Below are positions 23,972 to 25,338 of a DNA stretch of 64,000 nucleotides, in pieces (the first letter of the stretch is position 1; every line of letters begins with the position of its first letter). The stretch is taken from NCBI GenBank assembly GCA_964402895.1, contig CAYODR010000002.1, forward strand, positions 41,666 through 105,665. Reading direction: 5' to 3'. The notes beneath the pieces were generated by a model. The model ran no database searches. It was not told the origin of the DNA and saw only the letters and a program-made list of their open reading frames with translations. Source of the DNA: an uncultured Candidatus Saccharibacteria bacterium. Its GTDB lineage: Bacteria > Patescibacteriota > Minisyncoccia > Phycocordibacterales > UBA9973. Both the position numbers and the translations under genes were made by a program.

Positions 23972-24511
23972 TTAACTATTTTTAATTTTCTTAAGCAAAT
24001 TAAAGCTATTAGCATGAATACAATGCCCTAGATAAGAACTTACCTTAGGAATATCTTTGATTTGGATAAAACCATCTTTTTTATTCAAAATTTCATTATA
24101 AAAACTTTTAATATCCATTTTTAAATAAAAAAGTCTTTGCCTATTTACACCCCCGCGAGTAATAAAAAATCGCGCCCTCTTAAAAGCACGGTGTGTCCCC
24201 CTACCAATCCTATTGGCAAAAGAGCTATCCAAAAATTGTTTCTCAAAAATCTCTTCTATTTCATTACACAAAAGATGTTGAACTATCCTGTCCCTAAAAT
24301 CACTAGCAAAAACTTCCCTTGGTGCAGGATTTTTTACTACAAAACATATATGTCTAGATATTTTGTATTCCCCACTCTTTAATTCATTCAACAATTCTAA
24401 CAAATTAGCCTCACGATTTAATTCAAATTTTAAAGCATTTGTAGTATTTTTTTTATTTCTTATACATTGCTTATAAGCCATGTATAAATTTTTCATTGTA
24501 AAAATCGTCAT
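23972..24511 (-). CDS. DGR-type reverse transcriptase, C-terminally truncated (domains 1-3 only, no YxDD)
   Basis: 179 aa; [53 protein letters not shown] matches the conserved DGR RT N-terminal block (FRDRVVHHALCN..E.IFE..F...SYA.R.GKGTH.AL.R); motif 3 [13 protein letters not shown]; ORF ends ~50 aa later. Confidence 0.75.
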   Translation of the reverse strand: [179 protein letters not shown]

Positions 24512-24546
24512 ATAATAAATATATTAGACCAAGCAAAAAAAGAATA

Positions 24547-25338
24547 CTAGGCGGCACAGCGGACATACCTCCCATTAGTAACGCTATGCCTATTCACACT
24601 ACCATTATTGAAATTCTGGGGGTAAGCATAGGAACTAGAAGAAGAAGTAGAAGACCAGTAAGCGCCCGAAACAAAGGAAAGGTTCCCACTTTGTGCTCCA
24701 TAGTCATTGATAGCTTTTAGGATTTCAACAGATGGAAGTCTTTTACCAAGTGAAGCACAGGTATTGTTGGCATTAGCCCAATTTAAAAGTGTGGTACTAT
24801 CATTTATATCATTTGCATCTAATGTGATAACTCCTGTTGTGTCTACTCCGTAGTGTCTATTGTTGTAGTATACTGCCACACCGAAGTTTCTAGTCTCTAG
24901 GGAGTCTTCTGGGACATAGTGAGTATTTAATGTGGTATCTGGAACATTTGAAGTTCTAACAACACATCTGATATTTCCTGCTCCTGCAATACTTACGAGT
25001 GCATCTATCATGGGCTGTATTGATGAGTGTGGTGATATACCTGTTTTGTTGTATGCACAAAGTCCTGCAAATGTACCATTGTCTAGGTGGTATAGTTGTG
25101 CTTGAGTTTGAAGATTCTTTAGATTTGATTTGATTGAAGCTACTCTACCACTTGTGCGAGCTGAGTTTAGTGATGCGATAACTACACCTGCGAGGATTCC
25201 GATGATTGCAATCACTACTAAAAGTTCAATGAGCGTGAAGGCTTTATTTTTATTATTAAAAATTTTTAGCGCAGAGAAACTCTTTTTAGAATAGCGCCCC
25301 TTCATTTGTATTTTTGGATGAAAGGTTAATTTTTTCAT
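24547..25338 (-). CDS. type IV pilin-like protein with C-terminal FGE/C-type-lectin-fold domain carrying a DGR variable-region scaffold
   Basis: Start at MKKLTFHPK (25338). Prepilin N-terminus NNKNKAFTLIELLVVIAIIGILAGVVIASLNSA. C-terminal C..LGKRLPSVEIL...GAYWSSTSSSSSYAYPQNFNNGSVNRHSVTNGRYVRCAA ends the ORF. Stop is 35 nt upstream of the DGR RT ORF. Confidence 0.75.
   Translation of the reverse strand: MKKLTFHPKIQMKGRYSKKSFSALKIFNNKNKAFTLIELLVVIAIIGILAGVVIASLNSARTSGRVASIKSNLKNLQTQAQLYHLDNGTFAGLCAYNKTGISPHSSIQPMIDALVSIAGAGNIRCVVRTSNVPDTTLNTHYVPEDSLETRNFGVAVYYNNRHYGVDTTGVITLDANDINDSTTLLNWANANNTCASLGKRLPSVEILKAINDYGAQSGNLSFVSGAYWSSTSSSSSYAYPQNFNNGSVNRHSVTNGRYVRCAA

Follow-up and report, generated by a model that had tools for sequence, protein, structure and literature searches.

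The window, the whole 64-kb stretch of DNA that was analysed, carries a type IV pilin gene followed in tandem on the minus strand by the remnant of a reverse transcriptase (RT) gene, a locus known from a single assembly. The pilin gene, here termed P1 (24547..25338, minus strand), is an intact ORF of 263 aa. A 35-nt spacer (24512..24546, minus strand) separates its stop codon from the ATG of the RT ORF (23972..24511, minus strand, 179 aa), as the first-pass annotation had stated. The convergent rplT gene follows 211 nt beyond the RT remnant. Four more prepilin-type genes lie within the window. A paralogous pilin gene, P2 (33979..34797, minus strand, 272 aa), with a syntenic orthologue in L087, is embedded in a ribosomal-protein operon between rplE and rpsN, 9.4 kb from P1.

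P1 starts with MKKLTFHP and carries a class III signal, i.e. a prepilin cleavage/N-methylation motif and the hydrophobic start of helix alpha-1 (KAFTLIELLVVIAIIGILAGVV; 25180..25254, minus strand). This signal is matched by PF07963 (N_methyl, E 2.2e-9), which agrees with the earlier naming of the target as a pilin, by TIGR02532 (E 1.8e-7) and by several other pilin NCBIfam models, and FTLIELLVV is invariant across 59 homologues. The AlphaFold2 model of P1 (pLDDT 88.7) has a long N-terminal helix (residues 36-87) followed by globular domains. The best PDB matches of this model in Foldseek are the C-terminal domain of Legionella Lcl (8q4e), the C-terminal domain of Bd2740 and animal CTLDs. The sole Pfam match in the C-terminal half is PF07603 (E 8.6e-7; 29.7 bits in hmmscan, under the Pfam gathering cut-off of 34.9), which is also listed for P1 in its precomputed annotation. 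These matches support a C-terminal domain (24556..24795, minus strand) with a C-type-lectin fold, of the Lcl_C/DUF1566 kind. The target had initially been given an "FGE/C-type-lectin" fold; the C-type-lectin part of this claim stands, but not the FGE part, as P1 matched no FGE-sulfatase family in the Pfam scan or among the PDB fold matches listed. Lcl is the top structural match, but in P1 the domain is attached to the N-terminus of a type IV pilin rather than to a collagen-like adhesin. An extended -10-like element read from the sequence (TGTTATAAT; 25345..25353, minus strand), 6 nt upstream of the P1 ATG, is the probable promoter of P1 itself; the element belongs to repeat family D3, conserved upstream of four pilin genes.

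The last 41 codons of P1 and its stop codon (YWSST...YVRCAA; 24547..24672, minus strand) resemble the variable region (VR) of a diversity-generating retroelement (DGR) target. The terminus reads ...GAYWSST...GRYVRCAA-stop, and its last ~40 residues are hypervariable in an alignment of P1 paralogues and orthologues. The segment aligns with both the VR and the template repeat (TR) of relatives and keeps a G+C-rich (IMH-like) 3' end, CGCTGTGCCGCCTAG. It reads as a VR rather than a TR because only five of the 16 variable codons are AAT, the other 11 being diversified. These 11 codons, together with some 14 non-adenine mismatches to the VR family of P2, rule out that the 3' end of P1 is itself a TR embedded in the gene.

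The reverse transcriptase remnant

The RT ORF had been described as a DGR-type RT with the N-terminal block and motif 3 and without YxDD. This description was borne out: the N-terminal block is there, motif 3 is present as LKMDIKSFY, and YxDD is absent from the 179-aa ORF. When scored against the different RT families, the protein is closest to the DGR type. In a PDB search its residues 3-140 match residues 12-145 of bRT (E 2e-18, 70 bits), the best solved-structure match being 8ub7_A, a chain with 100% sequence identity to brt of Bordetella phage BPP-1, compared to 25.7 bits for the group II RT GsI-IIC and ~20 bits or less for retron-type RT structures. The PHROG RT family matches at E 7.7e-45, the best PADLOC match is a generic RT model, and the group II intron RT/maturase model TIGR04416 reaches 49 bits against a cut-off of 300, with only the N-terminal part matched. 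An Rfam scan of the 64-kb window detected no group II intron RNA and no retron RNA family, and gave zero matches at the pilin-RT locus. The nearest full-length homologues carry LPIGN(L/I)TSQ and YVDD and lie beside A-biased TR/VR pairs. On these sequence relationships, the RT can be assigned to the DGR clade. The closest intact RTs, L091 and L095, are found on Logan (k=31) contigs (runs SRR32279367 and SRR30140744) and are 81% identical to the window RT at the amino acid and 78% at the nucleotide level (for L091, 81% over the N-terminal part), while the RT of L009 is 61% identical over residues 1-141.

The claim that the RT "terminates before motifs 4-5" was not upheld. Intact RTs match the window in tblastn only at residues 1-141 and about 335-356. 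The N-terminal part of the remnant (residues 1-141, 24089..24511, minus strand) holds motifs 1-3 and is followed in frame by a C-terminal tail with the native stop (23972..24088, minus strand), which aligns with the tails of intact RTs. As the last ~38 residues constitute the native C-terminal tail, aligning with residues 234-279 of P0034, 335-356 of the L009 RT and 315-357 of the L091 RT, and also with L095, the lesion is an in-frame internal deletion that has kept the tail and the stop codon, and not an early end. The same tail rules out a simple 3' truncation. A continuation of the RT downstream or in another frame is likewise ruled out, since tblastn with residues 142-334 returned nothing and 211 nt are left before rplT.

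The deletion junction lies in a TTTTT run common to both breakpoints (24100..24104, minus strand). In a blastn comparison with the L095 RT, nucleotides 4-412 of the window RT correspond to 10-418 and nucleotides 408-515 to 954-1061, and L095 reads AGCTTTTTTCGT at the left and ATTTTTTATAAT at the right breakpoint. About 179 codons (about 537 nt) between two T5-6 runs are missing, equivalent to residues 142-334 of the L009 RT or 140-318 of the L095 RT. The alignment to intact RTs thereby confirms that motifs 4-7 are gone, and with them YVDD, the (L/I)GxxxSQ block and the greater part of the thumb, and from their absence the 179-aa remnant is predicted to be unable to polymerise. Across 14 intact RTs 32 positions of the N-terminal part are invariant, and 30 of these are kept in the remnant, from which we infer that the decay is recent. 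The remnant is a pseudogene, probably co-transcribed with the pilin. Its reading frame is intact and conserved residues are kept, as would also be the case for a protein under selection.

Probable loss of avd and the template

The arrangement of a target VR followed by an RT, with no avd or TR in between, had been noted from the outset and was confirmed, and both elements are absent from the rest of the 64 kb as well. A self-BLAST of the window detected no A-biased repeat pair that could include a TR; the same scan recovers TR/VR pairs in L001-L003 and in 61 of the 80 genome loci encoding relatives, with at least 80% of the mismatches at TR adenines. In tblastn against the window, the Avd ORFs of L009 and L007 returned nothing above noise level (E > 2), and there is no second RT in the window either.

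The best intact comparator is L009 (JBLYPV010000001.1, Patescibacteria group bacterium KTG4t2parc3), in which a pilin-Lcl_C target with a VR (9036-9181) is followed by an avd ORF (9265..9696), a TR (9826-9971) and an RT of 368 aa. P1 is 41% identical to this pilin target over its full length, and the avd ORF matches the PHROG "Avd protein of DGR". An avd ORF was also read in L007, and a VR and then a TR upstream of the RT are found in L007, L011, L012, L013, L014, L018 and L019. From the end of the TR to the start of the RT, intact relatives have 28-51 nt. The 35-nt spacer of the window (TATTCTTTTTTTGCTTGGTCTAATATATTTATTAT) is homologous to these TR-RT spacers by motif comparison: it holds TTTGCTTGG, also present in L009, L011 and L012, and the 31-33 nt ahead of the intact RTs in L091 and L095 are almost the same sequence. 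Hence the 3' end of P1 occupies the slot held by the TR in intact relatives, which points to a loss through recombination between VR and TR. In this lineage the two share ~30 identical nt at their 3' ends, and avd and the TR (about 0.75-0.8 kb) were probably lost by recombination between these common ends, by analogy with the intact cassettes. The ancestral TR is absent from the data, and both the recombination point and the VR x TR mechanism are drawn from relatives. The L091 and L095 contigs end 21-23 nt upstream of the stop-codon equivalent, and the element preceding their RTs falls outside the contigs. A T/C "discriminator" three bases past the stop, separating VR from TR in five relatives, was considered for placing the crossover and dropped, since the RT-proximal copy carries a T in both L091 and L095. 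Deletion 1, as this event is termed here, falls between near-identical repeats, a setting that can lead a metagenome assembler to a wrong join.

Other members of this RT family have likewise decayed by deletion. In L085/L086, which include P0035, the RT is internally deleted with its N- and C-terminal parts kept beside an intact avd and TR, and loci of the L085 type are found on seven contigs from several sources. L006 retains a nearly full RT, and P0002, the copy of the sister genome, is truncated differently from the window RT. In all of these the TR or the RT core is deleted and the target gene survives, as in the window. Unlike them, however, the window has lost TR and avd plus the RT core, and the breakpoints differ in each case. 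By analogy with L006, the contig of P0034 is probably to be read as target, truncated avd and RT, and not as a target directly followed by an RT.

Together, these data make it probable that the locus is a DGR of the CPR (Patescibacteria) clade that was inactivated recently. While the ancestral cassette was functional, with the putative order pilin(VR)-avd-TR-RT, the RT with Avd would have copied the TR RNA into cDNA with errors at adenines, and this cDNA would have overwritten the VR, varying the ligand-binding face of the C-terminal C-type-lectin domain of the pilin, presumably for attachment to host cells. Deletion 1, most simply a VR x TR recombination over ~30 nt, would have taken out the hairpin behind the VR together with avd and the TR, leaving the intact pilin abutting the TR-RT spacer, and deletion 2 would have removed RT motifs 4-7 between the T-runs. 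P1 itself is still intact and has a promoter-like element of its own, and its VR would now be frozen. The cassette is unable to work on its own, and the locus is a dead new member of a known CPR DGR clade, a case of ordinary decay.

The first-pass annotation had likewise seen a decayed or rearranged cassette, or an RT fragment next to a still-diversifiable target. The RT family, the avd and TR/VR of the relatives, the C-type-lectin fold and the missing TR, avd and RT core all agree with the decay. Neither of the outcomes that the annotation had named as refuting it, a better score with group II intron or retron RT models and a target domain of another fold, was obtained. The "still-diversifiable" part is unsupported for P1, because the hairpin following the VR in relatives is missing: MFE folds show none after the P1 VR, as opposed to hairpins of -23 to -58 kcal/mol located 15-35 nt past the VR in L005, L009, L011 and L012.

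The second pilin gene and alternative readings

The VR of P2 (last 41 codons; 33979..34104, minus strand) bears a footprint of DGR-type hypermutation. Compared to its L087 orthologue, P2 has 22 differences at codon positions 1-2 and two at position 3 in these codons, and 65 and 74, respectively, in the remainder of P2 (p = 3e-5, Fisher), while the 100+ nt downstream of P2 are 94-98% identical. All 16 variable codons are compatible with one A-containing template, TR2 (GCAAACAATTATTGGTCGTCTACTCAGTCAACAAGCTCCTACGCTTACAACCAGAATTTCACTAATGGTAATGTGAACAGGGACGCTACTACCAATAACAACAATGTACGCTGTGCCGCCTAG; GCAAACAATTATTGGTCGTCTACTCAGTCAACAAGC...AATAACAACAATGTACGCTGTGCCGCCTAG). As P2 differs from the orthologue almost only at positions 1-2 of VR codons, the hypermutation postdates the split of the two genomes, and DGR diversification in this lineage was recent.

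This footprint is an argument for the alternative that the pilin VRs of the genome are still diversified in trans by an intact DGR located elsewhere, the RT fragment being a relic of a redundant second cassette. It would also fit that P0039, which is encoded on this contig outside the window, has the same scaffold and is variable at the same positions, and that P1 and P2 have in common a G+C-rich 3' end and TAG-N-ATTCTTT. Between the P1 VR and the inferred P2 template there are about 14 non-adenine mismatches, so that P2 may use a TR different from that of P1. However, the footprint is explained equally well by the now-dead cassette acting before its recent death, and TR, avd and a second RT are all absent from the 64 kb. 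Moreover, TR2 is matched nowhere else in the window or in the loci fetched, and the window RT was the sole member of its family that the search returned from the 106-kb contig. The hairpin is lost in P1, and in P2 a weak one with a short stem in the MFE fold (TTCCAAAT...ATTTGGAA; 33912..33945, minus strand), in which CATTCTCTTCCAAAT matches CATTCTCTTCGAAAT of L011, appears to be a degenerate form of the strong hairpins that follow the VR in relatives. This reading is judged quite unlikely as a whole. That P1, P2 and P0039 form a dispersed set of targets which an intact DGR at another site in the genome continues to rewrite in trans is given a small, though not negligible, chance; if true, "orphan" VRs without a cassette would stay live after the death of the local RT, among them that of a hypermutating adhesin gene located between rplE and rpsN. 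A recent duplication of P1 and P2 with one common TR was ruled out, as synonymous sites are saturated along the entire gene. One metagenome scan each with the P2-type VR/TR pattern and with the common VR/TR 3' end gave zero matches.

The absence of avd and TR could also be an assembly artefact, caused by a jump from VR to TR at their identical 3' ends, the real order being pilin-avd-TR-(deleted) RT. The ~30 identical nt at these ends in the lineage of the window would permit this, in the closest relatives the contigs from Logan (k=31) end at precisely this point, and the window locus is present in just one assembly. A common stretch of ~30 nt is, however, short relative to the large k-mers normal in MAG assembly, and deletions of a similar and genuine appearance are seen in further assemblies (L006, and L085 with seven contigs). 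The RT deletion in turn has only 5 nt of microhomology and cannot be an assembly jump, so that a dead cassette is expected in any event. An artefact is therefore considered improbable. Finally, it is very improbable that the remnant, a fusion of fingers/palm motifs 1-3 and the thumb tail, is maintained as a non-catalytic protein, e.g. a regulator or brake binding template RNA or Avd: its start, frame, native stop and 30 of the 32 invariant N-terminal positions are retained, and P0035 was internally deleted independently beside an intact avd and TR on seven contigs, but an in-frame outcome has a one-in-three chance, a recent deletion explains the conservation equally well, no avd or TR is left here to act on, P0002 of the sister genome is truncated differently, and homologue searches found no family of such mini-RTs.

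Relation to known systems

In the prototype DGR of phage BPP-1 the order is mtd-avd-TR-brt and the target is a phage tail-fibre protein. The window RT is homologous to brt in its N-terminal region, the target VR likewise lies at the C-terminus of a C-type-lectin fold, and the intact relatives have avd, an adenine-biased TR/VR pair and the same gene order. In contrast to BPP-1, the window lacks RT motifs 4-7, avd and TR, its target is a cellular type IV pilin, and the TR-RT spacer in its clade is only about 30-50 nt. The best intact comparator is again the cassette of L009, a member of CPR DGR clade 2, which has the same RT clade, a homologous pilin-Lcl_C target and the same orientation and spacing, but is complete where the window copy is gutted.

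A dead cassette is by itself of little importance. It illustrates a route of DGR death, through loss of avd and TR at the common 3' end of VR and TR and through microhomology deletion of the RT core, with L009 at hand as an intact homologous cassette for comparison. It is also a warning for annotation, as an RT N-terminal block beside a C-type-lectin gene does not equal a working DGR. Further, a subset of CPR DGR targets is tied to type IV pilins. Type IV pili are implicated in the host attachment of episymbiotic Patescibacteria, and retroelement-driven variation of a lectin-like pilin would thus offer a testable hypothesis of host-range adaptation.

Roux et al. (2021, PMC8144416) state that clade-2 DGR targets typically lack recognisable transmembrane domains and other conserved domains, unlike the window target with its clear prepilin signal. 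Lcl_C/DUF1566 is a known C-type-lectin-fold domain of DGR targets, DUF1566 being reported as frequent among VR-bearing domains and a GspG-type pilin domain being listed among the rare ones (PMC11661182). DGRs of Bacteroides are described as diversifying pilus adhesins, in type V pili (bioRxiv 10.1101/2024.11.15.621889). They share with the window the retroelement-driven variation of an adhesive pilus component, but differ in pilus type (V versus IV), phylum and target architecture, and in being intact and active. In the window, the DGR-type mutation footprint is found in a pilin gene situated inside a ribosomal-protein operon.

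The cassette and its pilin gene

The locus is a real, recently inactivated diversity-generating retroelement (DGR) cassette, which supports the decay proposed in the first-pass annotation, with the description of the reverse transcriptase (RT) lesion corrected and a route proposed for the loss of the accessory gene avd and the template repeat (TR). Both genes lie where they had been placed, and both are on the minus strand: the type IV pilin gene P1 (24547..25338, 263 aa) and, beyond a 35-nt spacer (24512..24546), the RT remnant, a 179-aa ORF (23972..24511). The P1 ORF runs over 24547..25431, and its start was set at MKKLTFHP (25338) to match the paralogues. 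The N-terminal block and motif 3 (LKMDIKSFY) are present in the remnant as claimed, and YxDD is lacking. Its best match among solved structures is 8ub7_A (E 2e-18, 70 bits, residues 3-140), a chain whose aligned part shares 100% identity with Bordetella phage BPP-1 brt. A group II maturase model is the sole NCBIfam match, scoring 49 bits where the cut-off is 300, the best PADLOC match is a generic RT model, and the PHROGs match is an RT family (E 7.7e-45). Among the solved structures the group II RT GsI-IIC reaches 25.7 bits and retron-type RTs ~20 bits or less. The proposed DGR type thus holds, as no better group II or retron RT score was obtained. In the closest full-length homologues motif 4 reads LPIGN(L/I)TSQFFAN, and YVDD is present as well; (I/L/V)GxxxSQ, the form that motif 4 takes here, is a DGR hallmark. 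Repeat pairs with at least 80% of mismatches at adenines of one copy (A-biased) occur in 61 of the 80 genome loci encoding relatives, and the scan recovered the pair in its positive control (loci L001-L003, 17/17 mismatches).

In the domain profile search the N-methylation motif of prepilins is matched in P1 (PF07963, E 2.2e-9; also TIGR02532), and several NCBIfam pilin/pseudopilin equivalogs match it well under their own cut-offs. At the C-terminus Lcl_C/DUF1566 is matched (PF07603, E 8.6e-7), at 29.7 bits against a cut-off of 34.9. The AlphaFold2 model (59 homologues; pLDDT 88.7, pTM 0.80) combines a long helix in the N-terminal part (residues 36-87) with globular domains, and its top Foldseek match in the PDB is the Legionella Lcl C-terminal domain (E 1.9e-4), followed by that of Bdellovibrio Bd2740 and then by many animal C-type lectin-like domains. 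Of the FGE/C-type lectin (CLec) fold suggested earlier, the CLec part is therefore upheld; as to the FGE part, neither the Pfam scan nor the listed fold matches gave an FGE-sulfatase family match. Patescibacteria have many members of the family (4814 matches), and it is multi-copy in the source genome (P1, or P0038; P2, or P0040; P0039; P0080; one 106-kb contig). When aligned, these proteins are hypervariable over their last ~40 residues, on the fixed scaffold YWSST..S...AY.Q.F..G.V.R....VRCA. Directly upstream of P1 lies a pair of small plus-strand ORFs (25550..25759 and 25761..26033), which by eye alone resemble an antitoxin gene (ribbon-helix-helix-like) and a RelE/ParE-like toxin gene.

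Probable loss of avd and the template repeat, and deletion of the RT core

In the intact comparator L009 (JBLYPV010000001.1, Patescibacteria group bacterium KTG4t2parc3), the pilin-Lcl_C gene shares 41% identity with P1 along its entire length, ends in a variable repeat (VR, 9036-9181) and is followed by a 143-aa ORF matching 'Avd protein of DGR', by the TR (9826-9971, 10/12 mismatches at adenines) and then by the RT. The order VR, TR, RT recurs in seven further loci (L007, L011, L012, L013, L014, L018, L019), where 28-51 nt separate the end of the TR alignment from the RT start; the stop-codon equivalent within the TR sits 38-43 nt before the RT ATG in L007 and L009. The absence of avd and TR noted earlier at the cassette extends to the whole 64-kb window, in which tblastn with relatives' proteins found neither avd nor further RT sequence and the repeat-pair scan no A-biased pair; no Rfam family matched at the locus or close by. 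It is considered unlikely that diversification proceeds in trans from another part of the genome.

Between the P1 stop codon and the RT ATG there are 35 nt, and this spacer holds the TTTGCTTGG motif of the relatives' TR-RT spacers. Since the two closest intact RTs, on Logan assembly contigs L095 (TATGTTCGCTGTGCCGCCTAG TATTCTTTTTGCTTGATCTAATATATTTATT ATG) and L091 (similar), are preceded by sequence nearly identical to that of the window (TATGTCCGCTGTGCCGCCTAG TATTCTTTTTTTGCTTGGTCTAATATATTTATTAT ATG), the spacer is, on this resemblance, native. The 3' end of P1 occupies the exact position of the TR 3' end in relatives, and its final 41 codons resemble a VR rather than a TR, with 11 of 16 variable-position codons not AAY. 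We infer that avd and TR were probably lost by a VR/TR crossover. The simplest route would be an exchange inside the ~30 nt common to the VR and TR 3' ends, which would take out avd and the body of the TR together with the hairpin that follows the VR, ~0.75-0.8 kb as judged by the relatives' VR-to-TR distances. Contigs L091 and L095 end 21-23 nt before the stop equivalent, ~k-1 from the flank divergence, which shows that a repeat exists at these breaks and that the breaks hide the sequence upstream. An assembly mis-join at a repeat of the VR/TR type is quite improbable as the origin of the window arrangement.

The RT itself had been described as ending before motifs 4-5. BLASTP aligns it with the homologous protein P0034 in two segments (query 77-141 to P0034 1-65; query 134-176 to P0034 234-279), and in tblastn the L009 (368 aa) and L007 (379 aa) RTs, both intact, match the window with residues 1-141 (24511..24089) and ~335-356 (24049..23984), residues between 141 and ~335 having no match there. 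The L091 RT (359 aa) is 81% identical to the remnant across residues 1-141, and DNA of the L095 RT (367 aa) aligns in two blocks, window nt 4-412 with 10-418 (78%) and nt 408-515 with 954-1061 (75%); the L095 left and right breakpoint sequences are AAAAGCTTTTTTCGT and ATTTTTTATAATGAG, and the window junction is AAAAGTTTTTATAATGAA. By these alignments the lesion is an in-frame internal deletion of ~179 codons bounded by two T5-6 runs. It took away motif 4, YVDD, motifs 6-7 and the greater part of the thumb, as had been seen in part; the simple truncation is not borne out, as the native tail and stop remain in frame. The N-terminal fragment retains 30 of the 32 positions invariant across 14 intact RTs, which points to a recent event; that the remnant has been kept for a non-catalytic role is very hard to credit.

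On L091 (1133-1160) and L095 (1156-1188) another pilin gene starts 24-29 nt after the intact RT. At the corresponding place in the window (~23940..23971, minus strand) only a promoter-like TGCTATAGT remains, followed 3' by 200 nt of non-coding DNA and the convergent rplT; a pilin gene on this side of the RT may have gone as well.

Decay in relatives and published DGRs

Decay is recurrent within this RT family. Locus L006 (9858-11059) has lost its TR along with the 3' part of avd and the start of the RT. L085 (4113-7288) and L086 keep avd, TR and two VRs (27/29 and 28/38 mismatches at adenines) beside an internally deleted RT (P0035), a protein that recurs in 7 contigs from several sources. The sister RT P0002 (84% identical) ends after LPIGNITS. 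A decayed cassette is not new in kind. DGRs are enriched in the candidate phyla radiation (CPR), with a CPR-restricted clade, and their targets are reported typically to have no transmembrane or other conserved domain that can be recognised (Roux et al. 2021, PMC8144416). The known CLec-type VR domains include DUF1566, and among the rare VR-bearing domains there is a GspG-type pilin domain (PMC11661182); Bacteroides DGRs are described in a preprint as diversifying type V pilus adhesins (bioRxiv 10.1101/2024.11.15.621889). A type IV pilin as CPR DGR target is therefore little described, though not unprecedented. The significance of the locus lies mostly in this pilin context and in the hypermutation footprint of the ribosomal-operon paralogue P2.

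P2 and the ribosomal cluster

P2, a pilin-CLec gene (33979..34797, minus strand), lies between rplE and rpsN, an order conserved in the independent assembly L087 (orthologue at 2069-2839), where the flanking ribosomal genes show 81-85% nucleotide identity. The last 41 codons of the two orthologues differ at 22 sites in codon positions 1/2 and at only 2 in position 3, against 65 and 74 in the remainder of the gene (Fisher p = 3e-5), with 94-98% identity over the ~100 nt that follow. All variable codons (16/16) fit a single template in which each variable site is an adenine, its inferred translation being ANNYWSSTQSTSSYAYNQNFTNGNVNRDATTNNNNVRCAA, and variation in P0039 falls at the same positions. 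Judged from sequence comparison, this is the footprint expected of adenine-directed retrohoming after the two genomes split. The inferred template had no match in the window, the fetched loci or two metagenome scans, and the P1 VR does not fit it (~14 non-adenine mismatches). The TR of the dead cassette may have been the template for P2 and P0039, with P1 left to drift; alternatively there may be, or have been, a second DGR. The post-VR hairpin is strong in L005, L009, L011 and L012, degenerate in P2 and absent after P1.

The S10-spc ribosomal-protein cluster is interrupted, in the rpsS-rplB interval and between rplC and the rpsJ side, by three further prepilin-type genes, all on the minus strand (38769..39191, 39320..40015 and 42930..43640); the last has an Lcl_C-like C-terminus without the G+C-rich VR end. 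Four pilin genes share an upstream element, TGTTATAAT-AAAAAC-ATG (repeat family D3: 25345..25353, 34789..34830, 39962..40003, 43584..43625). As TGTTATAAT is an extended -10 box just 6 nt from the start codon, leaderless transcripts from own promoters are suggested for these genes. Conserved terminator-like hairpins, AAAAAACCGC...GCGGTTTTTT (family D6: 34842..34891, 40251..40300, 4019..4068), fall in the first two cases in the gaps that precede the pilin genes 33979..34797 and 39320..40015, which suggests that the ribosomal cluster is divided into several transcription units. A ~110-nt element with near-perfect inverted arms of 28-32 nt and a 54-nt centre (I19, I13 and I2 of the repeat scan), matching no Rfam family, is present twice (28279..28388, 40126..40243). 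The window also holds tRNA-Ser(GCT) and a tRNA-Ser with the unusual anticodon ACT, an inverted pair 600 nt apart, and a tRNA-Ile with anticodon TAT (9518..9605, minus; 10205..10294, plus; 16796..16870, minus).
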